Shown: positions 3,219 through 34,754 of the stretch, piece after piece
Layout: each line of letters opens with the position of its first letter
Position numbering within the stretch: position 1 is the first letter of the stretch
Assembly: GCA_964488915.1 (NCBI GenBank)
Contig: CAZAWU010000004.1
Span: 1-53,961 of the forward strand
DNA length: 53,961 nucleotides
Source: an uncultured Burkholderiales bacterium
Lineage (GTDB): Bacteria > Pseudomonadota > Gammaproteobacteria > Burkholderiales > JALYOK01
Reading direction: 5' to 3'
Notes under the pieces: generated by a model
Seen by the model: the letters and a program-made list of their open reading frames with translations, nothing else
What the model was told of the DNA's origin: nothing
Databases searched by the model: none
Position numbers and translations under genes: made by a program

Positions 3219-3237
3219 TGGTTGGTCCTTTCGTGGT

Positions 3238-7170: not shown

Positions 7171-7666
7171 ACTCTCTTCTCCTCTGTCGTGACTTCGATA
7201 ATGTCCCGTTTGCTAGCGCGATTTCGTACCGCGACATCCGAGATAGACACTCTTTGCTCAGGTCTAGCAGCAGCAAATGGCATTCCGCGTATTCGCCGAA
7301 AGCTGATGCGCGGCGGCGGCGGTCGTAATCAATTTTTTTCGCTCGGTATTCTGGCTGACGGCAATACTCGACGTGTCGCGCCATGTTTGCCTTGCGGTGC
7401 GCGCGCTCTTTCTCGCGGTCTGCTGTTGCTTGATACCAGGCTGCCTTCTTGACCTTCAGCACGGCAAAGTTCTTCACCCGGTAGGCCGCGTCGTAGATGC
7501 GCTTTTCCTCTTTTTTCTGTTCGTTCGATTTATTCACACGTCTCGCTAATCCATTGCACCGTCTACTGCAGAATAGGCGCATGCCTCGGCGGTGCGCGCG
7601 GTTCACTGCGCCAGCCTCTTGCTGACCAACCGTGCCGCATTGGGCGCATGTGAATTCGACCTTCAT
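7142..7666 (-). CDS. Hypothetical Zn-binding basic protein
   Basis: MKVEFTCAQCG...FCSRRC; SD GAGGG upstream of 7666. Confidence 0.7.
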   Translation of the reverse strand: MKVEFTCAQCGTVGQQEAGAVNRAHRRGMRLFCSRRCNGLARRVNKSNEQKKEEKRIYDAAYRVKNFAVLKVKKAAWYQATADREKERAHRKANMARHVEYCRQPEYRAKKIDYDRRRRASAFGEYAECHLLLLDLSKECLSRMSRYEIALANGTLSKSRQRRREYEKLISGRP

Positions 7667-7676
7667 CCATCCCTCA

Positions 7677-7707
7677 CAAAAACACGAGCGCCGCAAAGCG
7701 CTCGTGT
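7677..7707 (-). terminator. Intrinsic terminator-like hairpin in leftward operon
   Basis: Perfect 10-bp stem ACACGAGCGC/GCGCTCGTGT, 6-nt loop, followed by T-run on minus strand. Confidence 0.7.
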
Positions 7708-7712
7708 GCCGG

Positions 7713-7907
7713 TTACTTCTGTGTTGCTAGAAGCGCAGTCAGCGCAAATTCAAGCTGTGCGATTGCGTCCTTGGCGTGGTACACGCGCCGGGCAACGGCC
7801 TCGGGCGTCTCGGTGTTGTCGGCCTCGATGGCCGCAGTGATCGCCCGTGCGGCCTTCTTCGTGTCGCGCAGGGCTTCGGTGTAGCGCTTCGTTGTAGCTT
7901 CGTCCAT
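7713..7907 (-). CDS. Hypothetical protein
   Basis: AAGGAGG SD 6 nt before ATG 7907. Confidence 0.7.
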   Translation of the reverse strand: MDEATTKRYTEALRDTKKAARAITAAIEADNTETPEAVARRVYHAKDAIAQLEFALTALLATQK

Positions 7908-7941
7908 TTTCATCCTCCTTGGCCTGAGTTGGCAGCCCAAA

Positions 7942-7961
7942 GGGCGCTATCTAAAGCGCCC
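7942..7961 (-). terminator. Intergenic hairpin, possible terminator or antitermination site
   Basis: GGGCGCT-N6-AGCGCCC followed by TTTG on minus strand. Confidence 0.4.
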
Positions 7962-7987
7962 GAGGGTAAGTCGGTGATGTGGGCGAT

Positions 7988-8260
7988 CTAAGACCGCTCG
8001 CCCCTTTCGTTTGTCTCGTGGCCCCAATTGAGGGCTTTGAGCGCCTCCGCCCGCATTGTCTTGCGGTGCGCCTGAAATTCAACGCTTCCGACATTCAGTC
8101 CGTGGTCGGCATAGTTGATGGCCTCGCTCAGGGCCTCTTCCATCTTCTCAATAAGGCCGAGGGCCTGGTTGCAGATAGCTTGATCGGTGTAGCTGCCGTC
8201 TTGCTCGCAGCGCGCCGAGAGCTTCGCCAGCCGGTCTTTAATGTCGTCCAGGTCGTACAT
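7988..8260 (-). CDS. First gene of leftward early operon, hypothetical
   Basis: GAGG SD; directly downstream of predicted leftward promoter. Confidence 0.75.
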   Translation of the reverse strand: MYDLDDIKDRLAKLSARCEQDGSYTDQAICNQALGLIEKMEEALSEAINYADHGLNVGSVEFQAHRKTMRAEALKALNWGHETNERGERS

Positions 8261-8312
8261 CTGAGCCTCTGCCCTATTTCCGCCGGGACCATTCCCGGTG
8301 CGTCTGAGGGGA

Positions 8313-8341
8313 AAGCTAAGCGCTAAACTTTACCCCGTCAA
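8313..8341 (-). promoter_or_regulatory. Leftward sigma70-type promoter
   Basis: TTGACG-17 nt-TAGCTT. Confidence 0.65.
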
Positions 8342-8343
8342 GT
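8327..8343. promoter_or_regulatory. Putative 17-bp operator 1
   Basis: ACTTTACCCCGTCAAGT, imperfect palindrome over the leftward -35. Confidence 0.6.
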
Positions 8344-8353
8344 AGGAAAATGC

Positions 8354-8370
8354 ACTTTACAGGGAAAAGT
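8354..8370. promoter_or_regulatory. Putative 17-bp operator 2
   Basis: ACTTTACAGGGAAAAGT, same half-site, over the rightward -35 (TTTACA). Confidence 0.6.
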
Positions 8371-8390
8371 TTTTGTGTCACCGTCCCGGC

Positions 8391-8579
8391 ATGATGTCAA
8401 AAACCCAGATAAAGCGGCTACGGCTCGCATTAGGACTTTCGCAGGCACAACTCGCGGCTGAGGTAGGCGTGCACTTCACGCTCGTTTCGTCGTGGGAGGC
8501 GGGGCGACGCAAACCGAGCGGCCCGGCACTGTTGCTTTTGAAGCAGATGGCTGAGCGACTGAAGGGGACGGCAGAATGA
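8391..8579 (+). CDS. Cro-like XRE HTH regulator
   Basis: IKRLRLALGLSQAQLAAEVGVHFTLVSSWEAGRRKP; first gene of rightward operon; no SD. Confidence 0.9.
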   Translation: MMSKTQIKRLRLALGLSQAQLAAEVGVHFTLVSSWEAGRRKPSGPALLLLKQMAERLKGTAE

Positions 8580-9025
8580 CAATACGGAACGGGTTTGTTT
8601 ATTTTGCCGCCATTGAAGGCGGTGGTCCCGTAAAGATCGGGCACACGCGCTGCGCTGCCCTGCGGCGCGAGCTTCTTCAAGTTTGGCTGCCGTATCAGAT
8701 TGACATATCTGCGAAAGGTCGGGGCAATCAGTACCACGAGCTAGCCGCACACTTTCTTTGCAGGGACCATCACATAAGGGGTGAGTGGTTCCGGCCGCAC
8801 TCACTGCTGGACGTTCTCATGGAAGAGACGCGGCGAACCGGGAAGCTTGCGCAGCGCATCTGTGACCTGGCCGAAGACCTTCGCAAACGTCACTACGCAG
8901 GAGACAAGGTTTTTGGTGCGTCTACAAAATACGCATGGCGAAACCGGCAAGGCGAGGCAAAACGCAAGCCGTCGCGCCCTGTAGAATTAGCGCTCAAGCG
9001 CATGGAAAAGGAAGTTGTGGCATGA
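8576..9025 (+). CDS. T5orf172/MUG113 (GIY-YIG-like) domain protein
   Basis: GFVYF...GPVKIGHT...E...H...HIRGEWF. Confidence 0.8.
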   Translation: MTIRNGFVYFAAIEGGGPVKIGHTRCAALRRELLQVWLPYQIDISAKGRGNQYHELAAHFLCRDHHIRGEWFRPHSLLDVLMEETRRTGKLAQRICDLAEDLRKRHYAGDKVFGASTKYAWRNRQGEAKRKPSRPVELALKRMEKEVVA

Positions 9026-9273
9026 CCGAACCACTCAACTACGGCAAGAGCCAGCTCACAGTGTGCGAGAGGGTAGGGCTATTGAACCAAATAGAGGCCC
9101 TTGACGACTGCCTTGCAGATGTGCGGGCGTTTCTTGAGCCGATTACGCTTGGCACCTATCGCGGCGCGTCGAATTTCGCAATCGCCGACATCGAGGGGTT
9201 CCGCGAACAGCAGCAGGCGGCAAAGAAGCTTCTCGCGGTGCTGAACGAGGGGGAATTACATGCAAGAAGCTAA
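9022..9273 (+). CDS. Hypothetical protein
   Basis: ATGA-coupled start at 9022. Confidence 0.6.
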   Translation: MTEPLNYGKSQLTVCERVGLLNQIEALDDCLADVRAFLEPITLGTYRGASNFAIADIEGFREQQQAAKKLLAVLNEGELHARS

Positions 9274-9445
9274 GAAATTAGACCACGATACGGTGATGGC
9301 GATAGTGGTCGACGCCCTAACCAGCCAACGCATTTGGAACGGCAAGCGGCTGACAACCAAAGAGTGGGCAGAAACTTACACGCGGTATTATTTTTCGGAG
9401 GAAATGGAACAGGAGCGCCGCGCTCGCGCCGAGGTGAAGTCGTGA
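9260..9445 (+). CDS. Hypothetical protein
   Basis: GAGGGG SD; in operon. Confidence 0.6.
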   Translation: MQEAKKLDHDTVMAIVVDALTSQRIWNGKRLTTKEWAETYTRYYFSEEMEQERRARAEVKS

Positions 9446-9762
9446 GCCTCTGGAACAAAAAGCCCGCCGCCTACACCACGATCCTAACCCGTCTCCAAAT
9501 CGTTGAGGCCGATCCCTCGTTAGGCGAGGGCCGGTGGTCGCGCGAGGAGGAAATTACCAATGACGTTTACAAGCTATTCAAAATCAACGCGCGCCCCGTC
9601 ACGGCGGCTGCGATCGATGCCGTGTTCGCGAAATCCAAATCTGACCCGCTATTCGGCAAGGGTGGACTTGATCGCACGGAAGAATTGGCGAACGAGTTGA
9701 CGAAGCTGTGGCGCACGGCGGAGCAGCCGTTGTTGCTGACGAAATCGAAGGAGACACCATGA
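9442..9762 (+). CDS. Hypothetical protein
   Basis: GTGA-coupled start with GAGGTG SD. Confidence 0.6.
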   Translation: MSLWNKKPAAYTTILTRLQIVEADPSLGEGRWSREEEITNDVYKLFKINARPVTAAAIDAVFAKSKSDPLFGKGGLDRTEELANELTKLWRTAEQPLLLTKSKETP

Positions 9763-10151
9763 GCCGGTCAGGATATTCCGACGACTGCGAGCACCTCGCG
9801 ATGTGGCGGGGGCAAGTGGCTAGCGCCATCCGCGGTAAGCGCGGACAGGCATTCTTGCGTGAGATGCTGGAAGCGCTTGATGCGTTGCCGGAAAAACGGT
9901 TGATCGCTGACAACCTCATCGACAGCGGCGGCGGTGTCTGCGCGATTGGCAGCGTTGGCCTGCGTCGCGGGGTCGATATGAGTACGCTTGATCCGCAGGA
10001 CCAAGAAACGATCGCGCACAAATTTGGCATCGCGCGCCAGCTCGCAGCGGAAATTGCATACGAGAACGATGAGGCCGGATGGAACGACACGCCGGAAAAG
10101 CGCTTCGAACGCGTTCGCGCGTGGGTGATTGATCAAATCAAGGAAGCGTAG
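9759..10151 (+). CDS. Hypothetical phage protein
   Basis: AAGGAG SD; MSRSGYSDD...ASAIRGKRGQAFLREMLEALDALPEKRLI. Confidence 0.75.
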   Translation: MSRSGYSDDCEHLAMWRGQVASAIRGKRGQAFLREMLEALDALPEKRLIADNLIDSGGGVCAIGSVGLRRGVDMSTLDPQDQETIAHKFGIARQLAAEIAYENDEAGWNDTPEKRFERVRAWVIDQIKEA

Positions 10152-10464: not shown

Positions 10465-10872
10465 ATGACCACGAAAGCATGGCGTCGCTGGGCGCCGGGA
10501 GAAGTTGAAGACTTCATGCTGCTACTTTCAACCGGCCGATCATTTGCCGAGGTGTGCAAATCGTTCGGCCGGTCAGAGCAAGCGGCGCGCAAGCATCTGA
10601 CCGAGTGCGGCGCAATAAAAACCGTCGAGAGCCGTCTTGGTCGGCTTGCGTATCAGTTCGGCAAATCGGTCGCACCGCTGCCTGTGCCGCTGGCGTTGCC
10701 GGTGAGAGATGGCGACCCAGAGCCGAGTGGGCGTGAGGATGCTTGTCAATGGATCTACGGAACCACTGGCCGGGCGTTTTGTGGCCAACCTACGTTGCCA
10801 GGTTCAAGCTGGTGCGAGACGCACCGGGCACGTTGCTTTGTGAAGGCGAACGGACATGATCAAGCTCGTTAA
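10465..10872 (+). CDS. gcrA: GcrA-like cell-cycle regulator
   Basis: N-terminal HTH-like segment plus C-terminal CQWIYG...FCGQP...SSWCETH, the GcrA-type Cys motif. Confidence 0.7.
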   Translation: MTTKAWRRWAPGEVEDFMLLLSTGRSFAEVCKSFGRSEQAARKHLTECGAIKTVESRLGRLAYQFGKSVAPLPVPLALPVRDGDPEPSGREDACQWIYGTTGRAFCGQPTLPGSSWCETHRARCFVKANGHDQAR

Positions 10873-11203
10873 CCTCGCAACCCCGCCCGCCCTGAACAAC
10901 TTGTTCTTCAACGTCGCCGGCAAGGGGCGCGTGAAGAGTGACCGCTATCGCACGTGGCGCAACGCCGTCACGTGGGAAGTTACGGCACAGAAGCCTAAGT
11001 CGATCAGCGGCCCAGTCGCGCTGTCGATCACGATTGAGGATGGTGCGAGCCGTGCTGATCTCGATGGTTTGGCGAAAGCGCCGATCGACATGCTCGTTGA
11101 TCTCGGCATCATAGACGGCGACGGGCCTAAGGTTGTGCGCTCGATCAAGCTGCAGTGGGGTGCGGGGCCGGGGATGACGGTTGAGGTGAGGGCTGCGACG
11201 TGA
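10856..11203 (+). CDS. rusA: RusA-like Holliday junction resolvase
   Basis: PPALNN...RADLDGLAKAPIDMLVDLGIIDGD. Confidence 0.8.
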   Translation: MIKLVNLATPPALNNLFFNVAGKGRVKSDRYRTWRNAVTWEVTAQKPKSISGPVALSITIEDGASRADLDGLAKAPIDMLVDLGIIDGDGPKVVRSIKLQWGAGPGMTVEVRAAT

Positions 11204-11517
11204 GCGAACACGTAACGCATGAGTTTCTTGAGAAACTGTCCCGCGAGTTGGTGGACAGAGGCAAGTTGATCGAAGCGGGGTGGGTTGGGCTGCGGATCGC
11301 GGCCGTGTCACCTAACGCGCCTCAAATCCAAATTGATGAGATGCGCAATGCTTTCATGGCCGGCGCTCAGCACCTATTTTCAAGCATCATGACGATCTTA
11401 GAGCCTGGAGCGGAGCCAACCGACAAGGACCTTGATCGCATGTCGCTTATCGCGAGCGAGCTTGATGAGTTCATAACCACTTTCAAACTGCGGATCAAAA
11501 CGGAGGGTCGCGCATGA
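11200..11517 (+). CDS. Hypothetical protein
   Basis: Coupled overlaps; EMRNAFMAGAQHLF. Confidence 0.7.
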   Translation: MSEHVTHEFLEKLSRELVDRGKLIEAGWVGLRIAAVSPNAPQIQIDEMRNAFMAGAQHLFSSIMTILEPGAEPTDKDLDRMSLIASELDEFITTFKLRIKTEGRA

Positions 11518-11813
11518 CCACGATCAACGAGTGCAGCACTTATCGCCCGACAGTATGGCAACGCCTTGGCTTTGGATATGCCTACACACCGACGCAAGAT
11601 GATGAAGACTTCCCAGAGCCTGAATGGGCGCCAGGCGTTTTTCTCACGGAGACATTCGTGCACCTTGATTTGATCGACCGGATCAGGGTGCTTGTGAGCG
11701 GCAAGCTGCACGTGCAGACGCGCAGCAAGACCGATTGCGCGGTGAACAGAGCTTCGACCGTAAGCGCCGCTAAGGTGTTGCCGCCAACATTCGTATTCAC
11801 GCCACCACAATGA
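11514..11813 (+). CDS. Hypothetical protein
   Basis: GGAGG SD, ATGA overlap. Confidence 0.65.
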   Translation: MTTINECSTYRPTVWQRLGFGYAYTPTQDDEDFPEPEWAPGVFLTETFVHLDLIDRIRVLVSGKLHVQTRSKTDCAVNRASTVSAAKVLPPTFVFTPPQ

Positions 11814-17097: not shown

Positions 17098-19368
17098 GCG
17101 ACAAGGCTACGGCCGAATACGTCTGGAGGCCGCAAACGTGGACCGCAGCACGCCTTTGTGACCTGCCCGTACTTTGACGTGTTGTTCGGTGGGGCTCGCG
17201 GCGGGGGCAAGTCGGACGGTTGTCTGGGTGAGTTCGCCCTACACGCCAAGCGATACAGCAAGGACGCCCGCGGCGTGTTCATGCGGCGTGAGATGCCACA
17301 GGCGGACAGCCTCATCGACCGCAGCCAAGACATCTATGGTCCGATGGGGTGGACGTACCAAAAGGTCGATCGGCAATGGACGGCGCCCAACGGTGCAATT
17401 CTGCGGTTCCGACCGCTTGAAGACGATCGGGACGCCGAGAAGTACCAAGGCCAGCAGTTCACGCGGGTCTACCTGGAAGAGATGACCAACTGGCCGACGC
17501 CGCGTGCACCGGACAAGATGAAAGCCACGCTGCGCAGTGCAGCCGGCGTGCCGTGCCGCTTCAGAGCGACGGCCAACCCTGGCGGTGCCGGCCACCACTG
17601 GGTCAAGCAGCGCTACATAGACCCTGCCCCGCAAGGCAAGGTGCCGCTTGAGGATGAAAGCGGCAAGCAAGACCGCATGTTTATCCCGGCCCGCGTGGTC
17701 GACAACGTACTGCTACTGACCGCGGACCCCGGTTACGTTGACCGGCTGCGGATGACAGGCTCGGAAGCGCTTGTGAAGGCGTGGCTTGATGGCGATTGGG
17801 CTGTCATCGAGGGTGCGTTCTTCGACAACTGGTCGACGCATAGGCACGTAACGCCAGCGTTTGAAATACCGGCGCATTGGGCACGGTTCAGGGCAGGCGA
17901 CTGGGGGTCGGCCCGGCCGTTCTCGATCGGCTGGTATGCGATAGCAAGCGATGACACGCCACTACCCAACGGCATGACACTGCCGCGCGGCGGCATGGTC
18001 CGCTATCGCGAGTTCTACGGCTGTATCCCTGGCAAGCTGAACGAGGGCTTGAAGCTCACAGCCGAGCAAGTTGCGCACGGCATCACAGAGCGCCAGCTAC
18101 CAGACGAGAAATTCGTCTATTCGGTGATGGACCCGGCCGCATTCGCACAGGATGGTGGTCCGTCGATCGTCGAACGCATGATGAAAGCGGGCTCTGGCCC
18201 GTGGCGCCCCGCAGACAACACACGCGTAGGCCGCTTGGGTCACATCGTTGGATGGGACTTGGTTCGCCATAGGCTCGACGGCGAAGCGCCTGAGAGGCCG
18301 ATGCTTGTGGTGTTCGATACGTGCAGCGCGTTCATACGCACTGTGCCGCTGTTGCAGCATGACGAGGCCAAGCCGGAAGACGTTGACACGAACTCGGAAG
18401 ATCACTGCTTTATTGACGATACGCAGGTTTTGACGGATAGTGGGCCTAGGCGCATTGCCGATTTGGTCGGGACTGAGGGGCAAGTTCTGACTGTTGGCGG
18501 TGTGTTTGCCGCTTACCGTTCGTGCCGCATGACGCGGCGCAGTGCAGAGGTAGTGCGGCTGTCGTTCGATGATGGAACGCAGGTCACATGCACCCCGGAT
18601 CACAAATTCCTGACCGTGAACGGTTGGGAGATAGCGTCAAAACTGAGTGGCAAGACCCTGTTGCCATATCGGATCGGTGCCAAGAGTTCAGGGGCGTTCG
18701 ATACTACCTCTGCGGAAAATACTTTCAGCGCAAAGGCGTTAGACTTCATCGCGTTGTGTGGCAGTCGCGTTTCGGAGAAATTCCGAAGGGCACGCACATT
18801 CATCACATCGATGATGACCGATCGAACAACGCCATTGCAAACCTCGATGCGCTCTCACACTCAGACCATCTCAGCCACCACGGCGTTCGGCGGGCTGACG
18901 AATGTCGCGAGCGACTTGAGCGGATCAGACACAAGGCTGTTGCCTGGCACGGTAGCGAGGTGGGGCGCGCTTGGCACAGCGAGCACTACGACAAACACAT
19001 TCGCCCGACGCTTTGGCGGCGCGTTGTCCTCACGTGCCAAGTCTGCGGTAAGCAATACGATACGTGCTACACGAGACGGCTTCAGTCCAAGTTCTGCCAT
19101 CAGAATTGCAAGGCGCGTGCGTTGCGTAAGCGTCGAGCCGATGAACGAGCGGCAGGACGTGTACTGTCTGACGGTTCCTGATTACGGATGCTTCGCGCTG
19201 GCGAGCGGTGTGATCGTGTCGAATTGTGGCGACGAAGCACGTTATGCGTGTGCATCCCGTCCGTGGATCAAGCCGACGCCGCAGGTTGACAAGCCGATTA
19301 CGACGATACGTGATGTGACGCTGAACAAGCTTTGGAAATCGCGGGGCGGAGATAGGGCGAGGGTGTGA
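17094..19368 (+). CDS. terL: Terminase large subunit, intein-containing, with +1 frame break near 17136
   Basis: MSDKATAEYVWRPQ (frame from 17094) joins RGPQHAFVTCPY...GGARGGGKS Walker A, YLEEM Walker B, DWGSARPFS nuclease, EDH/C-DEARY. Confidence 0.92.
18406..19224 (+). mobile_element. Intein (273 aa) in the TerL nuclease domain
   Basis: Block A CFIDDTQVLTDSG, block B TCTPDHKFLT, block F VYCLTV, block G IVSN followed by Cys+1; removal restores EDH-CGDEARY. Confidence 0.92.
18588..19181 (+). CDS. HNH homing endonuclease nested inside the intein in an alternative (-1) frame
   Basis: RLHRVVW...GEIPKGTHIHHIDDDRSNNAIANL...H..HH and CQVCG...FCHQNC; both frames fully open. Confidence 0.88.
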   Translation: MHPGSQIPDRERLGDSVKTEWQDPVAISDRCQEFRGVRYYLCGKYFQRKGVRLHRVVWQSRFGEIPKGTHIHHIDDDRSNNAIANLDALSHSDHLSHHGVRRADECRERLERIRHKAVAWHGSEVGRAWHSEHYDKHIRPTLWRRVVLTCQVCGKQYDTCYTRRLQSKFCHQNCKARALRKRRADERAAGRVLSDGS

Positions 19369-24600: not shown

Positions 24601-25092
24601 GTGGCAACCGGGAATACTTTAGCCGTCTTTCTGCCGATGGGTTACGAGCCGCCATCGTCGAACTATGCGACGCTCGACACGCGCAATGGCCATCCCGTTC
24701 TCGACTTCGATACGACGACGCAAGAGACAGCTATTTGGACCGGCGTCTTGCCGCGTCACTATGCTGGCGGTGGTATTACGGTGTACATCCATTGGGCCGC
24801 GACGAGCGCGACTTCCGGCACGATAGGGTGGGACGTCTCGTTCGAGCGCATCGGCGACGGCTCGCAAGATATCGACAGCGACGGATTTGCAACGGCGCAG
24901 ACCGTCACCGCGGCAACCGTGCCCGGCACATCCGGCAACGTGGACATCACGAATGTGGCGATCACGGACGGCGCGAACATTGACAGCGTTGCGGTCGGTG
25001 AGGCGTTCCGCATCCGTGTGCGCCGCGATGTGGCGAACGACACGGCGTCGGGCGATGCGGAGTTGATTGCGGTCGAGCTGAAAGAGACCTAA
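24601..25092 (+). CDS. Stand-alone beta-sandwich domain paralogous to the tail-fibre C-terminus
   Basis: Aligns by eye with the last ~170 aa of 47388-48950. Confidence 0.7.
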   Translation: MATGNTLAVFLPMGYEPPSSNYATLDTRNGHPVLDFDTTTQETAIWTGVLPRHYAGGGITVYIHWAATSATSGTIGWDVSFERIGDGSQDIDSDGFATAQTVTAATVPGTSGNVDITNVAITDGANIDSVAVGEAFRIRVRRDVANDTASGDAELIAVELKET

Positions 25093-25838
25093 TGGCCGTT
25101 TATATGAATGTGGCCAACGTGGACGTTGTTTATTCGTCCTCGGCCGTGGTCACGGCGGCGCCGATCACGATGGCTTGCTGGTACAAGAAGGACAGCCATC
25201 CGGACGGCAACTACCACGTTGTTATGGGCATCAACTCCACCGGTGCCCCTGAGAACGGATGGATTTTGTTCGTCGACAACAGCGACGTGCTGAATTTCCA
25301 GACACTGGATGACGGCGCAAGCAGCACGGCGCAGCAGTCAGGAAGCGGCGGTTCAGGGTGGCATCACGCATGTGGTGTGTCGTCGGGTGCATCAAGCCGG
25401 TTTGCTTATCGCGACGGCAGTGCAGGTACGGAAAATACAGGGACGCAAACACCAACGACTGCGGGACTTAATCGCACCTCGCTTGGGAACTACTACTACG
25501 CACTTGGCGGCAATTGGTCGGGCATCAACCAGACCCAGAGCGTTGCCGAAGGTGCGGTGTGGAACGTAGCGCTGACCGCTGACGAGATTACGAGCTTAGC
25601 GCGCGGCTATTCGCCGTTGCTGGTCAGGCCATCGGCGCTCGTTTGGTATGTGCCGGCTGTGCGCACGTTGATTGATCTGAGGGGTAACGCGATATCAGGG
25701 GCAAACTCTGGCATCGTCGATCACCCGCCGATATTGAACTACAAACCAGTAGCGAACATCTTGGGCATTGCGCCGGTCGCGTCGAAGGCGATGCCGATCT
25801 TTAGCCGCACGCCAAGGTTCTTGAGGAGAGCTGCATGA
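25092..25838 (+). CDS. LamG/concanavalin A-like jelly-roll protein
   Basis: ITMACWY...WHHACGV...YRDG...AVWNVALTADEITSL. Confidence 0.85.
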   Translation: MAVYMNVANVDVVYSSSAVVTAAPITMACWYKKDSHPDGNYHVVMGINSTGAPENGWILFVDNSDVLNFQTLDDGASSTAQQSGSGGSGWHHACGVSSGASSRFAYRDGSAGTENTGTQTPTTAGLNRTSLGNYYYALGGNWSGINQTQSVAEGAVWNVALTADEITSLARGYSPLLVRPSALVWYVPAVRTLIDLRGNAISGANSGIVDHPPILNYKPVANILGIAPVASKAMPIFSRTPRFLRRAA

Positions 25839-26326
25839 GCCGTTTCTATTCCGCGCCACTGAGCGGCACAATTACCAATGCTGGCGGAGACACGGACATC
25901 TTCAGCATCCAACCGGCCGACGACAAGCCGATCAGGCTGTGGGGCTTCACGCTCGGCAACGTGTCTGAGGTAGGTGACACGGCGGAAGAGGCATTGCGCA
26001 TAACGGTCAAGTACGTGCCGGCCACTTTCACGGTTGGCTCGGGTGGCTCTGCGGTCACGGCAGTCTCGCCGGTTGATGATCCAACTGGCGCGGTGTGGGG
26101 TGCAACGGTGCGCGTGAACGACACGACGGTGGCAACCTCAAGCGGCACGGTAATCGTGCGCGACGAATTTGCATGGAACATCCGCAACTCGCCGTATGAG
26201 CATTGGTACCCGACGGAACGGTTTTGCCCTCTGGCAATTCAGACAAATGGCATCGTTATTAGGTGCGAGACCACACCGGCGGACGACTTTACGTTTTCCG
26301 GCACGGTGTACTTCGAAGAACTGTAA
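25835..26326 (+). CDS. Putative virion structural protein
   Basis: GAGGAG SD; T/G-rich beta composition. Confidence 0.7.
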   Translation: MSRFYSAPLSGTITNAGGDTDIFSIQPADDKPIRLWGFTLGNVSEVGDTAEEALRITVKYVPATFTVGSGGSAVTAVSPVDDPTGAVWGATVRVNDTTVATSSGTVIVRDEFAWNIRNSPYEHWYPTERFCPLAIQTNGIVIRCETTPADDFTFSGTVYFEEL

Positions 26327-26332
26327 TAGCCT

Positions 26333-27319
26333 ATGGCGCGGTTTTTCTATAAGCGCGTTGCAAAACGACGTTTAAGACGCCGTGTCTGGGCTCTTTCAAG
26401 ACCGCTTGTTCACTACACGATAACAGCGGCACAAGGCAGTTACACACTATCCGGCCAAGCGGCGAACTTGCTGCAAGGCTATCTGGTCAGCGCAGGGCAA
26501 GGCTCATACAGCCTAACCGGCCAAGCGGCGACGTTCTCGCGAACGTACATCGCTGTTGCTGGCCAAGGCTCGTACTCGCTAACCGGTCAAGCGGCCGGGC
26601 TCAATCAGGGCTATGGCTTCGCGGCTGATCAGGGCAGCTACGCGCTAACCGGTCAAAGCGCGAACCTGCTGACCGCGCAAATACTGACCGCAGCGCAGGG
26701 CTCTTACGCGCTAACCGGACAAAGCGTCGATCTCCGCAAGGGGCGCACGCTCACGGCCGAGCAAGGCAGCTACGCACTAAGCGGCCAGGACGTCACGTTC
26801 GGTCGCATCTACGTTATGGCCGCAGGGACGGGCTCTTACAGCCTGACCGGTGTAAACGCTGAGCTTAGCGTCCCTGCGGCTGTACCTACTCCAGAGCCTG
26901 CCGCACCAGGCGCAGGTGGTGGTCCGGCCGCGTACTGGTATCGCGGCAAGTACCGCAAGGAAGTGCGGCGCACGATCGATGCGGCGATACGCGAGCTAAG
27001 CGACATCGGGGAAACCCGCTCGCCGCGGTCCCGCAAGCGCAAGATCAGGCGCGTTGCGCGCGAAGTATCGGACGCACTGCAATTCGACGTGCCGGCGCAA
27101 CTGCACCGTATGCCGGAGTTCAATGCGCTTGACCCGATCAGGCTCAAGTTGCTCGAGACGAGCTTAGCGCTGCGTGAAGCCGAGATGGCCGCAGAGATGC
27201 GCCGTCAGAAGGCGGAAGAGATGCAACGCTTGTTCGCTGAATACGAGGCAACGATGCAGCGTATTGAGCGTGAGGAAGAGGAAGAGGCGATAGCCTTAAT
27301 CATGGTGATGGCAGCGTAA
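26333..27319 (+). CDS. 22-aa-repeat fibre-like protein with C-terminal coiled coil
   Basis: Seven AxQGSYxLTGQ units; acidic helical tail. Confidence 0.8.
   Translation: MARFFYKRVAKRRLRRRVWALSRPLVHYTITAAQGSYTLSGQAANLLQGYLVSAGQGSYSLTGQAATFSRTYIAVAGQGSYSLTGQAAGLNQGYGFAADQGSYALTGQSANLLTAQILTAAQGSYALTGQSVDLRKGRTLTAEQGSYALSGQDVTFGRIYVMAAGTGSYSLTGVNAELSVPAAVPTPEPAAPGAGGGPAAYWYRGKYRKEVRRTIDAAIRELSDIGETRSPRSRKRKIRRVAREVSDALQFDVPAQLHRMPEFNALDPIRLKLLETSLALREAEMAAEMRRQKAEEMQRLFAEYEATMQRIEREEEEEAIALIMVMAA
26426..26887 (+). repeat. Seven degenerate 66-bp coding repeats
   Basis: Recurring CAAGGC-TCx/AGx-TAC-...CTAACCGGxCAA. Confidence 0.9.
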
Positions 27320-28054: not shown

Positions 28055-28078
28055 GGGAAGCGAGTAACCCAAACCTCG
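28055..28078 (+). promoter_or_regulatory. 24-nt leader motif, copy 1
   Basis: GGGAAGCGAGTAACCCAAACCTCG, identical at 32986. Confidence 0.6.
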
Positions 28079-28090
28079 GGAGTGACGAGC

Positions 28091-29212
28091 ATGGCAGGAC
28101 GGCGCACTGCGTCTGACGACGCTGCGGAAGACTTTGATGTCATGGAAGCCGAACCGATGACTGGCGGCGACTATGACGATGACGACAGCGATACGGGGGA
28201 AGATTGGGACGCCAACGAATTGGCGCGCGGCGACGGCGAGAAAGAGGGCGAGCCGCTCGAGGATGAAGAGGAAGAATTAGAGGCGTCTGACGAAGACGAG
28301 GAAGACGGCCCTGACGACGAAGACGACGAGGAAGAGGAAAGTGACGACGAAGAACTAGAGGCGATAGACCCGCCGGCGAATTGGCCGGAACAGGAGCGCC
28401 AGTTCTTTGCCGAGCTCCCCCCGCAGTTGCAGCACGCTTACATGGCGCGCGCGCAGCACATGACGGCCGATTACACCCGCAAGACACAAGCGCTCGCGGG
28501 CGAGCGGCAACAGATTGCGCAAGAGCGTCAGACAATCGGCGATTTGCAGCGCGTGATTGGTCCGCATCTACAGAATTGGGCGTTGAACGGCATGGGGCCG
28601 GCGCAAGCCGTACAACAGCTTATCGCCCTGTCCGACATGGCCACACGAGACCCGGCCGGCTTCATTCAGTATTTCGCCAATCTTCGCGGCGTCAACCTCC
28701 AAGCCCTGCAGCAACAGCAGGAGAACGAGTACGTTGACCCGCAAGTACAGGTGCTGCGGCAGCAGCTTGCTCAAGTTCAGGCCCATTTGAACCAATCGAG
28801 CCAGCAGCAACAACAGTACCAGCAGCAGCAGTACCAGCAGCAGTATCAAACCGCGTTCAACACGACGAGCGCGGCCATCAACGACTTCGCGCGCCAATCT
28901 GACCAGAACGGAAATCCGCTCTATCCACACTTCGACGAGGTAATCGACGAAATGGCGGGGCTGATCGAGAGCGGTCAGGCGCGTTCCATGCCCGAAGCCT
29001 ACAAGAAGGCGGTTTGGCTCAATGACAACACGCGGCAGAAACAGCTTGCCCGTTCGCGAGCAGAAGCGAATGCGAAAGCCCGCCGTCGTGCTGAGAGAGC
29101 CTCACGCGCAGCTTTCTCGCTTACCGGTGCATCTGGGGCCAATGGCGCATTTAACCCAGGGGATCTATCGATCCGCGACACGATTACATCGGCGTGGAAT
29201 GGAGACCTCTGA
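28091..29212 (+). CDS. Scaffolding protein
   Basis: Very acidic N-terminus, DYTRKTQALA coiled coil, Gln-rich; directly before capsid gene. Confidence 0.8.
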   Translation: MAGRRTASDDAAEDFDVMEAEPMTGGDYDDDDSDTGEDWDANELARGDGEKEGEPLEDEEEELEASDEDEEDGPDDEDDEEEESDDEELEAIDPPANWPEQERQFFAELPPQLQHAYMARAQHMTADYTRKTQALAGERQQIAQERQTIGDLQRVIGPHLQNWALNGMGPAQAVQQLIALSDMATRDPAGFIQYFANLRGVNLQALQQQQENEYVDPQVQVLRQQLAQVQAHLNQSSQQQQQYQQQQYQQQYQTAFNTTSAAINDFARQSDQNGNPLYPHFDEVIDEMAGLIESGQARSMPEAYKKAVWLNDNTRQKQLARSRAEANAKARRRAERASRAAFSLTGASGANGAFNPGDLSIRDTITSAWNGDL

Positions 29213-29244: not shown

Positions 29245-30210
29245 ATGCCTAGTCCCAACCTGTCCGAAATCACCACGACCACGATGCGCTATCGGTCGGG
29301 GAAACTTCGTGACAACATGTCGAAGAACATCGCTTTGCTGATGCGTCTTCGCGACAAGGACAATGCGTCTCCCGTCTCTGGCGGCGAGCACATTGTTGAA
29401 GAGCTCGAATACGCGGAAAACAGCACGTTCATGTACTACTCGGGTGACGAGGTACTGAACGTGTCGGCTTCCGACGTGTTCACTGGCGCAACGTTCGACT
29501 GGAAGCAATGCGCAGCCGCGGTCAAGATCAACGGCCTCGAACTGCTCAAGAACTCCGGTCGCGAGAAGGTCATTGACCTACTTGAAGCCCGCATCAAGAA
29601 CGCCGAGAAGACCATGCTCAACAACATGAGCACTGGCGTCTACTCGGACGGGACCGGCACGGGCGGCAAGCAGATCGGCGGCCTGCAACTGCTTGTGTCC
29701 GACGCGGGCACCGGCACCGTTGGCAATATCAACTCGTCCACGTACTCGTTTTGGCAAAATGCGGTATACGACTTCTCGACGAATGGCGTCGCGGCTTCGG
29801 CCCTGACCATCCAGGACGCGATGAATTCGCTCTACCTCTCGCTCGCGCGCAATCGCGACGTGCCCGACCTGATCGTGGCCGATAACACGTACTATGGGTA
29901 CTACTGGAAATCGCTTCAGGCGATCCAGCGCATCACGGACGAAAAGATGGCAAGCGCAGGCTTCCAGACCTTGAAGTTTATGGGCGCTGACGTCGTGTAC
30001 GACGGCGGTTTCTCGGGTACGGCCCCGAGCGCTCATATGTACTTCTTGAACACCGACTATGTGAAGTTCCGGCCGCACCGGGACCGCAACATGGTCCCGC
30101 TGAACCCGGATCGGTTCTCAACAAACCAAGACGCAATGGTGAAACTGATTGGATGGGCTGGCAACATGACCATCTCCAATCGGTCGCTCCAGGGCGTCAT
30201 GGTCGCGTGA
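29245..30210 (+). CDS. Major capsid protein
   Basis: 321 aa after scaffold; MPSPNLSEITTTT...KLRDN...ALL; WKQ-x-AAAV; GTGTGGKQIGGL. Confidence 0.88.
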   Translation: MPSPNLSEITTTTMRYRSGKLRDNMSKNIALLMRLRDKDNASPVSGGEHIVEELEYAENSTFMYYSGDEVLNVSASDVFTGATFDWKQCAAAVKINGLELLKNSGREKVIDLLEARIKNAEKTMLNNMSTGVYSDGTGTGGKQIGGLQLLVSDAGTGTVGNINSSTYSFWQNAVYDFSTNGVAASALTIQDAMNSLYLSLARNRDVPDLIVADNTYYGYYWKSLQAIQRITDEKMASAGFQTLKFMGADVVYDGGFSGTAPSAHMYFLNTDYVKFRPHRDRNMVPLNPDRFSTNQDAMVKLIGWAGNMTISNRSLQGVMVA

Positions 30211-30227: not shown

Positions 30228-30725
30228 ATGGCTTACCACATCACGACTGGCGAAATCGGCGGCCAGGCAATCAACGAAACGTCGACAACGCAGTATCACC
30301 CGCTTGGGAAGATCGTTACTGCACGCGATCCGACCTACGGCGAGGGCGAGTTCATCTATCTGTTGGGCGTCGCATCAACGGTAGTTGGCTCTGTGGTCAC
30401 GTACCACCCCTCGACGTGGCAGACGGCGCTTTGCCCGGTGGGCAATGCGATCCCGAAGCCTATCGCGGTGGCTATGTCGGCAAACGTGGCGGCGTCTTAC
30501 GGCTGGTATCAAATCAGCGGTTTGGCGGTTGCTGCGAAGTCGGCGACGATTTGCTGCGTTGCCGGCGCTGGTATCGCGGTCAAGACGATTGGCTTGATCT
30601 CGAAGACCGGCTCGCTTGCTGAAATCCAGGGTGGCGTGTGCGCTACGACGGCTTCGGCCGCAACGGGCCGCACGACGGTTCTGATTTCAATTCACAGGCC
30701 ACACATGCAAGGACGGATTACATAG
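30228..30725 (+). CDS. Capsid-associated (decoration/cement-like) protein
   Basis: Follows capsid gene with strong SD; PLG...GEFIY...YGWYQISG. Confidence 0.65.
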   Translation: MAYHITTGEIGGQAINETSTTQYHPLGKIVTARDPTYGEGEFIYLLGVASTVVGSVVTYHPSTWQTALCPVGNAIPKPIAVAMSANVAASYGWYQISGLAVAAKSATICCVAGAGIAVKTIGLISKTGSLAEIQGGVCATTASAATGRTTVLISIHRPHMQGRIT

Positions 30726-30729
30726 GCTT

Positions 30730-32166
30730 ATGCTTATCACTACAACTGATGGGGCGGCGAACAGCCGCCCCAGCTCTTACCGCGTGCCGGAGGTTGACCT
30801 CATGGTGCGCTACCAAAACCCGGACGCCAAGGCGGGCCTGACTATTCCGGTTCACCTTGTCTGCAATACGCCGGAAGAGGATTTACTCGCCAACATCAAG
30901 GCTAACAGCGCTAACCCTGCCCGTGGATGGATTGCGACAAGCGCGGCTCACGAGAGCAAGGCCGTGCTGTGCGGCTCCGGTCCGAGTTTGGCCGATGACC
31001 TGGCGGTTGTTCGTGCCATGCAAGCGGATGGCGCGACTGTGTTCGCGATGAACGGTGCGGCCAACTTCTTGCGGCGCAACGGCATCATGGCCGACTACCA
31101 AGTGATTGCGGATGCGCGCGAGAGAACGGCCGACCTGGTTGGCGAGGCGAACGGGCACATATTTGCAAGCCAAGTGCACCCGGAGTGCTTCAAGCGCGCG
31201 CCGGAAGCCATAATGGTTCACGTCAATTACTACTCAGACCATACCGAATTTTTGACCATCATCGACGGCGTTGGACCAAATGAGTTTGTGCTCGTTGGTT
31301 CTCACGGGTCAGTTGGGAATGTGGCGCTCGGAATTGCGTACGCGATGGGCTTCCGTGATCTGCACGTGTTCGGGTACGACAGTTCGTTTCGTGAAGAAGC
31401 TGGGCACGCGTTTGATCAGCCGATGAATGTCACAGAGCCGGTTTGCGAAGTTGAGTATCAGGGCAAGAAGTACCGCTGCACGTTCACGATGAAAAGCCAG
31501 GCGGATGTGTTCCCACGGCTTGCCTACGAACTGGAAGAGATGGGGGCGCGGTTCACGGTTTACGGGTCAGGGTATTTGCAAGATCGCTGGTATGGCGAGA
31601 AGGCCAAGACGCTGGAGCAGCGCGAGGCGGACAAGTATCGCGAGATGTGGGACCACGCGCAGTATCGCAAGCTCATTCCCTCGCTTGATCACGTTGACGC
31701 TGCGATCGAGAAGCTAAGGATACGGCCAGGCGACGGGCTTGTTGATTTCGGCTGTGGAAGCGGCCGGGCAACGAAGATGTTTCAGGACAAGGGCATCTAT
31801 GCGGTGGGCGTCGATATCGCTCGCAACGCCGTGGACGCTGATCTCAAGGGCGCGTTCGTCGAGGCGTGCCTCTGGAAATTGCCGCCGCTTCGTGCGGAGT
31901 GGGCATTTTGTGTCGACGTGATGGAGCACATACCAACTGAGCGCGTGGACGATGTTCTTGCGAGCATCGCGCGCACGATCGACTTGCGCGGCGCGTATTT
32001 CGCGATTGACAGTGCGCCTGATGAAATGGGCGTGTTGATTGGACAGCCGTTGCACCTGACCGTGCGGCATCCGGCATGGTGGGCACGGCGGCTTAGAGAC
32101 CACTTCGCGCATGTTGAAGAATGTGACGGCGGGGTGTTTGTCTGTTCGAAGAAGTTAGCGGCCTAA
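30730..32166 (+). CDS. Maf/MptE-like (DUF115) domain fused to class I SAM methyltransferase
   Basis: VLCGSGPSL, VFAMNGA, GFRDLHVFGYDS; then LVDFGCGSG, GVDI, CVDVMEHIP. Confidence 0.8.
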   Translation: MLITTTDGAANSRPSSYRVPEVDLMVRYQNPDAKAGLTIPVHLVCNTPEEDLLANIKANSANPARGWIATSAAHESKAVLCGSGPSLADDLAVVRAMQADGATVFAMNGAANFLRRNGIMADYQVIADARERTADLVGEANGHIFASQVHPECFKRAPEAIMVHVNYYSDHTEFLTIIDGVGPNEFVLVGSHGSVGNVALGIAYAMGFRDLHVFGYDSSFREEAGHAFDQPMNVTEPVCEVEYQGKKYRCTFTMKSQADVFPRLAYELEEMGARFTVYGSGYLQDRWYGEKAKTLEQREADKYREMWDHAQYRKLIPSLDHVDAAIEKLRIRPGDGLVDFGCGSGRATKMFQDKGIYAVGVDIARNAVDADLKGAFVEACLWKLPPLRAEWAFCVDVMEHIPTERVDDVLASIARTIDLRGAYFAIDSAPDEMGVLIGQPLHLTVRHPAWWARRLRDHFAHVEECDGGVFVCSKKLAA

Positions 32167-32185
32167 TCGCTATCCTCCCGACTTG

Positions 32186-32215
32186 GCGGCTGGCGCAAGT
32201 CAGCCGTCCTTTTTT
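32186..32215 (+). terminator. Intrinsic terminator-like hairpin
   Basis: 9-bp stem with GCAA tetraloop followed by CC and six T. Confidence 0.6.
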
Positions 32216-32227
32216 GGAGTGCACGAA

Positions 32228-32479
32228 ATGCACGGACGTGATTGCAACAACTGCAGCTATTTCGGTCACGAGCGTGTCATGTTGAGGGGTACTGAATACG
32301 GCTCGTGTCGCGTCGACGGGCCGTCGACTAGCTCCACATATATCGGCTCAGGTTTCTACGGAGAGGCTTGGGTCGGTCAGTGGCCGTTCGTCTCGCAGAA
32401 TGCTTGGTGTGGGCGGTTCGTCAAAGATACGAGCCGTGTCGCAACAAGCGTGTCAGTCGGTAACCCAACACTCGAATAG
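32228..32479 (+). CDS. Small Cys-rich protein
   Basis: CNNC...C...WCGRF; GGAG SD. Confidence 0.7.
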   Translation: MHGRDCNNCSYFGHERVMLRGTEYGSCRVDGPSTSSTYIGSGFYGEAWVGQWPFVSQNAWCGRFVKDTSRVATSVSVGNPTLE

Positions 32480-32489
32480 GAGAATACCC

Positions 32490-32810
32490 ATGGCCTTCGA
32501 TGTCCCCTTCGGCAAGAAAGTGCGCATCCCCTTCACGTTTCTCGACGCTAACAGCCTTGCCGCCAAGGTTGACGGCACGCCTACTGTTTCCACGACGTTC
32601 GGCTCGGTTGTTGAGGTGGTGAGCGACGGCGCCGGCGGCTTCAGCGCGCTTGTTGACCTCGGTGGCGTAGGTTCCGCGTCCGTGTCTGGCGTGGCCGACG
32701 TCGATCTCGGCTCGGGCGTGAAAGAGCTTGCGTTCACGCTCGGCGATTTCAACGGGTTGGCGTCGCCTGAAGCGACAGCGGTCAGCGTCGGTAACCCGGT
32801 TGTTGAATAA
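32490..32810 (+). CDS. Small beta-sandwich (Ig-like) protein
   Basis: AGGAG SD; alternating hydrophobic beta pattern. Confidence 0.7.
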   Translation: MAFDVPFGKKVRIPFTFLDANSLAAKVDGTPTVSTTFGSVVEVVSDGAGGFSALVDLGGVGSASVSGVADVDLGSGVKELAFTLGDFNGLASPEATAVSVGNPVVE

Positions 32811-32985: not shown

Positions 32986-33009
32986 GGGAAGCGAGTAACC
33001 CAAACCTCG
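32986..33009 (+). promoter_or_regulatory. 24-nt leader motif, copy 2
   Basis: Identical to 28055-28078. Confidence 0.6.
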
Positions 33010-33022
33010 AAAGGAAGAAGCA

Positions 33023-33679
33023 ATGTCAATGCAAGAAATCGGTTCGCCTACCGCAATCCCGCGCAAGGCTGACTTCTCGACGGTCATTCCGCGGTTCTTC
33101 ACGCAGGAAATCGCAACGGATCAGGTGGACGGGCAAACCGGCCTCAAGGTTTATCGCACGGTTGAGTACGTCGAATTGCTGATCCCAGGCGACAAGGGCG
33201 CAGCGCCGGTGAAGCGCGTGAACGATCAGATCCGTGCGATGTACCGCGATCAGTATGCGCGGTGGAAGGAGCAAGGCGGCGGCGCTGATATGGTCGGCGA
33301 CGGAATACCGCTCAAGCTGTGGCCCGGCATCAAGCAGGAAGTCGCGCGCGGGCTTGAGAACATCAACATTTGGACCGTGCAGCAGCTTGCTGCGATGTCG
33401 GATAGCCGGTGCACGCAGCCGGGAACGATGGGCTTGCGCGATTTGCGCGACAAGGCGCGTGCGTTCATTGAGAGCGCATCACAGACGGCGCCGATTGCGG
33501 CGTTGCAGGCGCAGCTTGACGACATGAAGAAGCGTGAGACGCTTCGGGACGATCAACTGAAGCAAGCGCTTCAGCGTGCCGAAGAGGCTGAGGCGAAACT
33601 GGGCGGCGTGAACGTGAAACACGAGACCATGCCGGAATTGAACACGCCGCGCGGGCGGCAAAAACAGGAAAGGGAATAG
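33023..33679 (+). CDS. Conserved head-region protein of unknown function
   Basis: AAAGGA SD; C-terminal coiled coil. Confidence 0.75.
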   Translation: MSMQEIGSPTAIPRKADFSTVIPRFFTQEIATDQVDGQTGLKVYRTVEYVELLIPGDKGAAPVKRVNDQIRAMYRDQYARWKEQGGGADMVGDGIPLKLWPGIKQEVARGLENINIWTVQQLAAMSDSRCTQPGTMGLRDLRDKARAFIESASQTAPIAALQAQLDDMKKRETLRDDQLKQALQRAEEAEAKLGGVNVKHETMPELNTPRGRQKQERE

Positions 33680-33685
33680 ACTACA

Positions 33686-34045
33686 ATGCCCATTCAAACC
33701 CAATTGATGAGCGCGGGCTTGCCGGCTGGTACGGCGCAGGCGCTCAATCGCGTTGCAACGTTTGCGCTGGCTGGCTCGACGCAATCGGATGGTACGAAGA
33801 TTACGGCTCCAACGGCGATCTTTACGTCCGGGTCCGGTAGCGCGGTGTTGCCGACGCCGAATGCGGGCGACGTCATCAACTTCGTGAACGTGTCCGGTAA
33901 CACCGGCACGATCTTCCCGGCCAGCGGCGGCACGATCAACGCTCTGTCTCAGGACGCGTCTATCTCGATTGCAACGGCGAAGTCGTGCCTGTTCGTCGCG
34001 CAGTCGGGCACGCAGTGGCGCACCATCCCACTAGTCCCATCGTAG
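33686..34045 (+). CDS. Putative virion structural protein
   Basis: T/G/A/S-rich beta composition. Confidence 0.65.
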   Translation: MPIQTQLMSAGLPAGTAQALNRVATFALAGSTQSDGTKITAPTAIFTSGSGSAVLPTPNAGDVINFVNVSGNTGTIFPASGGTINALSQDASISIATAKSCLFVAQSGTQWRTIPLVPS

Positions 34046-34055
34046 GCCAACTCAC

Positions 34056-34754
34056 TTGAGTTTGCTTACGTTGGTGAACGCCGCACAGGCGTTGCTCAAC
34101 CTTCCCGTTACCACAACCGTGATGACGAATACCGGCGAGGCGCAGGTCCAATTGCGCCAAATCGCCATTGCGGAAGGACGGGCGCTTGCTCGCGTTCATC
34201 CGTGGCAAAGGCTGATCACGGAAAACTCGTTCACGACGACCGCGACGCAAGAGCAAACCGGCCACACCATGCCGACCGATATGGGATGGATACTCAACGA
34301 GACCATCTACAATCGGACGAACACGGAGCAAGTGAATGGGCCGCTAAGCCCGCGCATGTGGCAAGAGCAACGCGCCGTCGGGACGTCGATCACGTGGTCG
34401 CAGTACCGGTTGCGGGGCAACTCGATCTACTTCATTCCCGCGCCTACGGCCGGGCAATCGGTGTACTACGAATACGTCTCGAACAAGTGGTGTCAGTCGT
34501 CAGGCGGAACAGCGCAAGAATACTGGCAGGCCGATAGCGATACGGGGCGGCTTGACGAGTACGTCATGACGCTTGGCGTCGTGTGGCGGTGGAACAAGGC
34601 CAAAGGCCTGGCCTACGAGCAGGAATACAACGACTACATGGAAGAACGGCAGCGGTTGATCTCGCGTGATGGAACGCGGCGAACGCTGAGTGTGGCTGGG
34701 CCGCTTAGGTGCGGTCTTGGTAAGGGCAACGTACCCGAAGGATCTTGGACATGA
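34056..34754 (+). CDS. Head-tail adaptor (tail tubular A-like)
   Basis: Position and size; YEYVSNKW, LGVVWRW-x-KAKGLAY. Confidence 0.7.
   Translation: MSLLTLVNAAQALLNLPVTTTVMTNTGEAQVQLRQIAIAEGRALARVHPWQRLITENSFTTTATQEQTGHTMPTDMGWILNETIYNRTNTEQVNGPLSPRMWQEQRAVGTSITWSQYRLRGNSIYFIPAPTAGQSVYYEYVSNKWCQSSGGTAQEYWQADSDTGRLDEYVMTLGVVWRWNKAKGLAYEQEYNDYMEERQRLISRDGTRRTLSVAGPLRCGLGKGNVPEGSWT

Follow-up and report, generated by a model that had tools for sequence, protein, structure and literature searches.

The window analyzed here, the whole stretch of 53,961 nucleotides (nt) from contig CAZAWU010000004.1 of an uncultured Burkholderiales bacterium, is a tailed-phage genome or contig. Within its head operon, a gene at 30730-32166 (+) encodes an enzyme that joins a DUF115/Maf-like transferase domain to a class I S-adenosylmethionine (SAM) methyltransferase domain, as identified by open reading frame (ORF) calling, Pfam, and an AlphaFold2 (AF2) model. 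Directly upstream, across a gap of 4 nt, lies the gene for a small virion structural protein of 165 amino acids (aa) (30228-30725, +; phrog_29386, E = 3.6e-23), which we refer to as the small head protein. Here, we describe the enzyme, show that the two genes are inherited together across many phages, and then assess what the pair may do to the phage particle.

A two-domain enzyme in a phage head operon

The enzyme ORF begins with ATG, occupies exactly 30730-32166 (+), and encodes 478 aa. An original prediction, made from the letters of the window, had given this place and size along with five motifs, and the translation contains all of them: GSGPSL at residue 82, NGA at 108, GYDS at 215, DFGCGSG at 339, and DVMEHIP at 396. 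The proposed combination of a Maf/DUF115-like domain with a C-terminal SAM methyltransferase is likewise borne out by Pfam. Residues 52-222 match PF01973 (MptE-like, formerly DUF115; E = 4.6e-21) with 75.8 bits against a cut-off of 34.6, over model positions 3-170 of 171, and residues 331-458 match the class I models Methyltransf_23/25/11/12 (E about 1e-6 to 4e-5). The protein is soluble, with no hydrophobic or transmembrane segment and no signal peptide, and its AF2 models have predicted local distance difference test (pLDDT) scores of 89.7 for the full-length enzyme and 92.1 for the N-terminal domain. The system to which this gene belongs is probably real and functional.

The PF01973 core (30883-31395, +) includes the GSGPSL loop (residues 82-87), D128, and a GYDSS motif with D217; both aspartates are invariant across 62 homologues. 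The core continues into a conserved extension of the N-terminal domain (residues 223-295; 31396-31614, +) that consists of a GHAFDQPMN motif, a beta-hairpin, and a long helix. With the model of the N-terminal domain as query, the top Foldseek match in the PDB is the Maf of M. magneticum (5mu5; E = 8.6e-10, template modeling [TM] score 0.61, 22% identity). The second-best is the archaeal MptE/HPPK (8sd5; E = 5.7e-5, TM about 0.5, 10-12% identity), and GT29 sialyltransferases are among the further fold matches (E = 6e-5 to 5e-2). A profile search with the same domain ranks these families in a similar way (E = 1.4e-13 for 5mu5, 6.6e-3 for 8sd5, and about 1 for the sialyltransferase Cst-II), and phmmer of the enzyme against 5mu5 gives E = 3.5e-8. 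The NCBIfam PseD model covers only positions 224-377 of 640, scoring 28.9 bits where the cut-off is 670. The extension aligns only up to Maf residue 429 and is missing from the short MptE enzyme. In published work on Maf, the central PF01973 domain is described as a modified GT-A fold resembling Cst-II, and the M. magneticum enzyme is reported to need residues 324 and 415 for its activity (PMC11339370; bioRxiv 10.1101/2020.06.03.131540); D128 and D217 of the phage enzyme align with these two positions.

The remainder of the enzyme (residues 296-478; 31615-32163, +) is a class I SAM methyltransferase. Motif I (DFGCGSG, 339-345), the acidic residue D362, and motif IV (DVMEHIP, 396-402), which define this class, are invariant in homologues, and a PLHLTV...WW motif is also conserved. 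Fold searches with this domain return many SAM methyltransferases (E about 1e-7).

Co-inheritance with the small head protein and variants of the slot

To assess whether the enzyme and its neighbors form a cassette, pairwise divergences were compared by Mantel tests across 66 loci. The divergence of the small head protein follows that of the DUF115 domain closely (rho 0.79, p ≤ 0.0005), and the value stays at 0.79 when the major head protein is controlled for in a partial correlation. Neither DUF115 (rho -0.06) nor the small protein (-0.02) correlates with the major head protein, whereas a downstream protein of ~217 aa (p217; 0.46) and the head-tail adaptor (0.51) do track it. The enzyme, in turn, shows only a weak correlation with p217 and the adaptor (0.12-0.14). 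Because the p217 gene is equally close to the enzyme gene and yet gives a value of 0.14, adjacency alone fails to explain the link with the small head protein. An earlier, smaller test on 11 loci gave the same picture.

Phylogenetic trees agree with the divergence comparison. On the small-protein tree, the presence of the enzyme amounts to 5 changes over 116 rows, compared with a mean of 26 when the labels were shuffled (none of 500 shuffles was as low), and a clade of 76 rows that includes the window (support 99) is entirely enzyme-positive. On the major-head-protein tree, at least 9-12 changes are required over 54-72 rows. Loci seeded with the enzyme are positive by construction; what is informative is how the enzyme-positive rows cluster and how this differs from the capsid tree. 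Together, the tracking of divergences and the contrast between trees show that the enzyme and the small head protein are one exchangeable unit, a mobile two-gene cassette that is swapped independently of the capsid shell. Our literature search found no paper on phage DUF115/MptE-like/Maf enzymes, and the co-inheritance across 66 loci is new here.

The family is widespread in metagenomes. In 50,697 phage records, megablast with 15 kb as query returned nothing, and tblastn of the enzyme returned one match, to the methyltransferase part only. A word-index search of metagenomes recovered the fused DUF115-methyltransferase in at least 882 clusters; 227 representatives have the fused architecture at E ≤ 1e-30, and IMG/VR has at least 559 stretches that code for a relative of it. 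Within the set of species-representative genomes, the full arrangement is confined to metagenome-assembled genomes (MAGs), assigned to Arenimonas, Gallionellaceae, Phenylobacterium, Rhodospirillaceae, Rhodobacteraceae, Dehalococcoidia, and Isosphaeraceae. The length of the Isosphaeraceae contig, 649 kb, suggests an integrated prophage. The cultured strains in that set hold only cellular homologues of the methyltransferase.

The position of the cassette is conserved. All 10 enzyme-seeded loci that were examined for gene order have scaffold, major head, small protein, enzyme, ~217-aa protein, and adaptor genes in that sequence. The original prediction had proposed a survey of synteny next to capsid genes, and this survey shows that the slot is kept: the major head gene is upstream in 60 of 61 evaluable enzyme-seeded IMG/VR loci, and the small-protein gene is immediately upstream of the enzyme in 58 of 61, at a median gap of 44 nt. 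When loci were instead seeded with the capsid, 22 of 67 (33%) had a DUF115 gene in the slot. Cultured relatives by capsid, the Myxococcus phages Mx8 and Mx9 and the Bradyrhizobium phage ppBjS10J-1 (47-57% identity in the major head protein), have no enzyme gene; in these phages, the small structural protein gene is directly followed by a homologue of the 218-aa protein gene.

What fills the slot varies among relatives. In addition to the DUF115-methyltransferase form of the window, we found methyltransferase-DUF115, DUF115-methyltransferase-DUF115, and stand-alone DUF115 forms. Other forms carry a GT8-like module, either as GT8-like-DUF115 with an FkbM-type methyltransferase, as GT8-like-DUF115 with a separate methyltransferase gene, or as GT8-like-DUF115-Methyltransf_24-DUF115. 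This module, which is fused to DUF115 or adjacent to it, recurs in slot proteins (E = 1e-18 to 1e-83) and matches a protein-glycan galactosyltransferase (PDB 6mw5, E = 4e-4). The slot methyltransferases belong to three unrelated Pfam families (Methyltransf_23/25, FkbM-type Methyltransf_21, and Methyltransf_24) and are fused in either order or encoded separately; the recruitment of three unrelated families to DUF115 speaks for methylation as a step of the pathway. Phages with a major head protein 86-89% identical to that of the window carry the GT8-like-DUF115-FkbM form, in which DUF115 is only 31-34% identical. Two relatives (L011 and L012) have an additional nucleoside diphosphate (NDP)-sugar epimerase/dehydratase gene in the head module. 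Altogether, the gene context favors glycan chemistry for the enzyme.

Further observations concern relatives of the two domains. The epimerase/dehydratase gene of L011 lies at 10738-11652 (PF01370, E = 6.9e-47), in a phage that has the domain-swapped methyltransferase-DUF115 enzyme. Two proteins of this swapped type, P0153 (1049 aa) and P0166 (751 aa), have 280-560 extra C-terminal residues that have no Pfam match and seem to be internally repeated. The closest relatives of the methyltransferase domain in cellular genomes adjoin, in a Verrucomicrobia MAG (L198), a 578-aa, Maf-sized PF01973 protein and a TPR-GT41 protein, a neighborhood of the protein-glycosylation type that adds to the case for glycan chemistry, and two related MAGs (L188 and L194) pair the same methyltransferase with a DUF115-like protein of 577-578 aa. 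The L198 cluster (221-10105) comprises the 578-aa PF01973 protein, a 943-aa TPR protein, the close methyltransferase homologue, and the TPR-GT41 glycosyltransferase, and is possibly an uncharacterized protein-glycosylation island. In Planctomycetaceae MAGs (L185-L187, L191, and L208), the methyltransferase homologue forms the C-terminus of proteins of ~1020-1040 aa.

Proposed modification of the phage head and competing explanations

The most likely reading, to which we assign a probability of roughly 0.55, is that the enzyme O-glycosylates and methylates the small head protein. The enzyme would be cytoplasmic and expressed late, and would act on the phage's own particle. Its Maf/sialyltransferase-like N-terminal domain would move an activated sugar supplied by the host, probably CMP-linked and of the ulosonic-acid type, onto serine and threonine (Ser/Thr) residues of the small head protein; methylation of the transferred sugar would fall to the C-terminal SAM methyltransferase. 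Exchange of the cassette between related phages, independent of the capsid shell, would alter the surface chemistry of the head. The original prediction of a one-gene system that adds a methylated sugar to capsid or fibre proteins is thus upheld in part: the reading with the most support is that a virion protein receives a methylated sugar, but co-inheritance makes a two-gene cassette the better description.

The choice of acceptor follows from the co-inheritance with the enzyme, which places the small head protein ahead of Ser/Thr-rich accessory proteins or fibres as the leading candidate. Here, we depart from the original prediction, which had pointed to the Thr/Ser-rich accessory proteins. 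Small proteins encoded beside the enzyme are richer in Ser/Thr than those that are not (0.198 versus 0.155, p = 1.3e-5), and within the 20 residues that precede a conserved RP motif, enzyme-adjacent proteins have 5.6 Ser/Thr versus 3.4. In the small head protein of the window, T63, S129, S143, T149, and T150 are lineage-specific Ser/Thr columns. As for the donor, none of 48 other ORFs of the window is a flagellin gene or a gene for CMP-nonulosonic-acid biosynthesis, and the lack of a donor pathway in the window leads us to infer a host-supplied sugar. [quoted passage not shown] The Maf of C. botulinum can use the same compound (bioRxiv 10.1101/2020.06.03.131540). Together, these two points make Kdo a reasonable donor candidate, although naming it as the donor is a guess.

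Several observations weigh against this proposal. Co-inheritance is evidence of linkage, not of an enzyme-substrate relation. A place of the small head protein on the capsid surface is presumed, and a profile of the protein has no PDB relative. The Ser/Thr enrichment is significant as a raw difference but not after phylogenetic control: the enzyme-positive small proteins form few lineages and therefore provide only 1-3 independent supported contrasts. We thus rejected the enrichment as proof of the acceptor and treat it as a lead. No sugar-nucleotide or nonulosonic-acid pathway gene is present among 48 other ORFs of the window. The methyltransferase does not disclose its substrate class either, as an assignment from sequence or fold was rejected when only generic small-molecule methyltransferases were matched. 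The enzyme has neither the N-terminal nor the C-terminal domain of Maf, with ~50 residues before the core and the methyltransferase after it, and because of this we do not file it as a true Maf. Finally, an alignment with the M. jannaschii MptE/HPPK shows the same GxGPS loop and an aspartate at both conserved positions.

This last point bears on an alternative that we consider improbable, in which the N-terminal domain is an MptE-like ATP-dependent (pyro)phosphotransferase that, with the methyltransferase, equips a head protein or small molecule with a phosphate or methyl-phosphate type of group. In its favor, PF01973 takes its name from MptE, the M. jannaschii enzyme is the second-best fold match, and pairs of kinase and methyltransferase cap glycans elsewhere, as in WbdD of E. 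coli O9a. Since the loop and both aspartates are common to MptE, they mark the superfamily and are no proof of glycosyl transfer; we therefore rejected the catalytic residues as a means of telling Maf from MptE. The original prediction had raised pterin pyrophosphokinase activity as a check on its own reading, and on this the residues do not decide, but profile and fold similarity favor Maf over MptE. The N-terminal domain is much closer to Maf in both respects, and its conserved extension of 70 residues is missing from MptE, which stands alone at about 240 aa and is only 10-12% identical. Close similarity to 8sd5, a stand-alone size of ~240 aa, and a folate/methanopterin gene context, which together would mark an MptE-type enzyme, are all absent; no folate or pterin genes accompany the enzyme among 48 other ORFs of the window. 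The repeated fusion to GT8-like modules and the NDP-sugar epimerase gene nearby in relatives also argue against phosphotransfer. A transferase that works like the Maf core is therefore favored, by relative similarity and gene context rather than by residues.

If the chemistry is glycosyl transfer and methylation, the acceptor might still be another virion protein, such as the major head protein, a tail fibre, or one of the repeat-rich or lectin-like accessory proteins encoded upstream. The enzyme gene does lie within a structural operon, the enzymes of mycobacteriophages act on capsid as well as tail-tube proteins, and Ser/Thr/Gly-rich accessory proteins are encoded at 25835-27319 and 33686-34045. 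We regard this as unlikely, given that the divergence of the enzyme follows that of the small head protein (0.79) and not that of the major head protein (-0.06) or of p217 and the adaptor (0.12-0.14), and that the upstream accessory genes are not conserved in other cassette-bearing loci. Modification of a host molecule has little in its favor, although the original prediction had offered remodeling of a host surface glycan as a second possibility. During infection or lysogeny, the enzyme would then act on a molecule such as lipopolysaccharide or capsule precursors or flagellin, one conceivable purpose being to block superinfection. Phages are well known to encode glycan-modifying enzymes that alter the O-antigen of the host, flagellin is the target of Maf enzymes, and the donor must come from the host. 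Against this, the gene is inside the late head operon behind its 4-nt gap, no promoter-like or strong terminator-like site separates it from the head genes, its position is kept in 58 of 61 loci, it is co-inherited with a virion protein, and its product has no membrane segment or signal peptide. Least probable is modification of phage DNA, by base glycosylation or methylation, at packaging. The gene is near packaging and head genes and its product has a methyltransferase domain; however, this domain is not of a DNA-methyltransferase family, separate N6/N4 and D12-type DNA methylases are encoded elsewhere in the phage, and co-inheritance with a structural protein would go unexplained. We also know of no sialyltransferase-like DNA transferase.

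Among the closest known systems are the Maf flagellin nonulosonic-acid O-glycosyltransferases (M. magneticum 5mu5, C. botulinum, and G. kaustophilus). These have the same PF01973 core and are the best match in sequence and fold, and the phage enzyme conserves the acidic residues equivalent to 324 and 415. Both they and, presumably, the phage enzyme are cytoplasmic and act on an abundant structural protein before assembly. Maf proteins differ in having N-terminal Rossmann-like and C-terminal helical domains and a length of about 630-670 aa, compared with 478 aa in the phage enzyme. The phage enzyme in turn is fused to a methyltransferase, resides in a head operon rather than a flagellar glycosylation island, and has only 22% identity. 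The GT29/GT42 sialyltransferases (ST8SiaIII, ST6GalNAc2, and Cst-II) share a modified GT-A/Rossmann fold for binding CMP-sugars, but the similarity is weak and the sialyl motifs could not be aligned with the N-terminal domain, so membership in these families is not established.

The nearest parallel on record is virion glycosylation in mycobacteriophages. According to the account in PMC11600133, which cites Freeman et al. 2023, cluster O mycobacteriophages modify their capsid and tail-tube proteins by means of an O-methyltransferase gene and three glycosyltransferase genes. As in our case, glycosyltransferase and O-methyltransferase genes are carried by only some related phages (clusters O/F). 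In contrast, the genes in that account are separate, with no Maf-type fusion, the hosts are actinobacterial, and no dedicated acceptor protein inherited with the enzymes figures in it; we liken the two systems by gene content. As cited in the same source, virion glycosylation has been experimentally shown only for a few actinobacteriophages, in which it alters antibody recognition. If our reading is correct, self-glycosylation would extend to a large set of phages with Gram-negative hosts, via a different type of enzyme borrowed from flagellin glycosylation. The enzyme would be a minimal Maf, reduced to the core and lacking the domains that flank it, with the 165-aa small head protein as its candidate cognate acceptor, and the pair would be convenient for studies of substrate choice in Maf-type enzymes and for glyco-engineering.

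A broader proposal, which is tentative and rather less probable than modification of the small head protein itself, is that of a widespread "capsid serotype" cassette. In this proposal, a small head protein with a dedicated Ser/Thr acceptor patch would travel together with a Maf-derived transferase of its own, to which GT8-like and methyltransferase modules are joined in various combinations, enabling Mx8-like phages of Gram-negative bacteria to swap the glycan coat of the head without changing the capsid shell, with a universal host sugar such as CMP-Kdo as donor. The modular swapping of transferases and methyltransferases in one slot suggests a diversifying pressure on the phage surface. Candidate causes of such pressure are adsorption to debris, grazers, capsid-sensing host defences, and particle stability.

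Other features of the head operon

The genes around the cassette run in the order intein-carrying terminase, portal, acidic scaffold-like protein, major head protein, 165-aa protein, enzyme, phrog_20268, SU10-type adaptor, and tail genes. The acidic, Gln-rich scaffold-like protein (28082-29212, +) is the first gene of the head operon. The major head protein (29245-30210, +; phrog_9953, E = 6.8e-109) is a backbone gene that is not co-inherited with the cassette. The original prediction had placed the enzyme directly after capsid and decoration genes; the capsid neighbor stands, as phrog_9953, but the 165-aa protein between them is known only as virion structural. Its Mx8 homologue, AAK94384, is annotated as "major virion structural protein." Downstream, two backbone genes encode the conserved 218-aa protein (33023-33679, +; phrog_20268), whose divergence follows that of the major head protein rather than that of the enzyme, and the head-tail adaptor (34056-34754, +; phrog_6013), relatives of which match PF24175 SU10_adaptor.

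A terminator-like hairpin with a 10-bp stem, including 7 GC pairs, and a T-run is found 19 nt past the enzyme stop (32185-32216, +). It is not kept in the relatives L001 and L002 or in Mx9. As these have no such hairpin, we rejected it as a conserved operon end and consider it local to the window. Between the hairpin and the gene at 33023 are two small ORFs with no family match, a Cys-rich one of about 83 aa (32228-32479) and one of 106 aa (32491-32810).

A 15-nt motif, GTAACCCAAMMCTCG, has three exact copies in the window (28064-28078, 32460-32474, and 32995-33009), where 0.01 are expected by chance. The copies are just upstream of the starts of three late genes: the scaffold gene, the 106-aa ORF that starts at about 32491, and the gene that starts at 33023. 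The motif may be a shared leader or translation signal.

Further upstream, the large terminase (17158-19368) carries an intein splicing domain (PF14890), and the window has three HNH_3 endonuclease ORFs. The region between the portal and scaffold genes has many more genes than that of Mx9. One of these encodes a 248-aa protein with a concanavalin-A-like lectin domain (25092-25838; Laminin_G_3, E = 1.7e-11). A 328-aa protein (26333-27319) has about seven protein-level repeats of QGSY(S/A/T)L(T/S)GQ, which Tandem Repeats Finder missed at the DNA level, followed by a charged helical tail.

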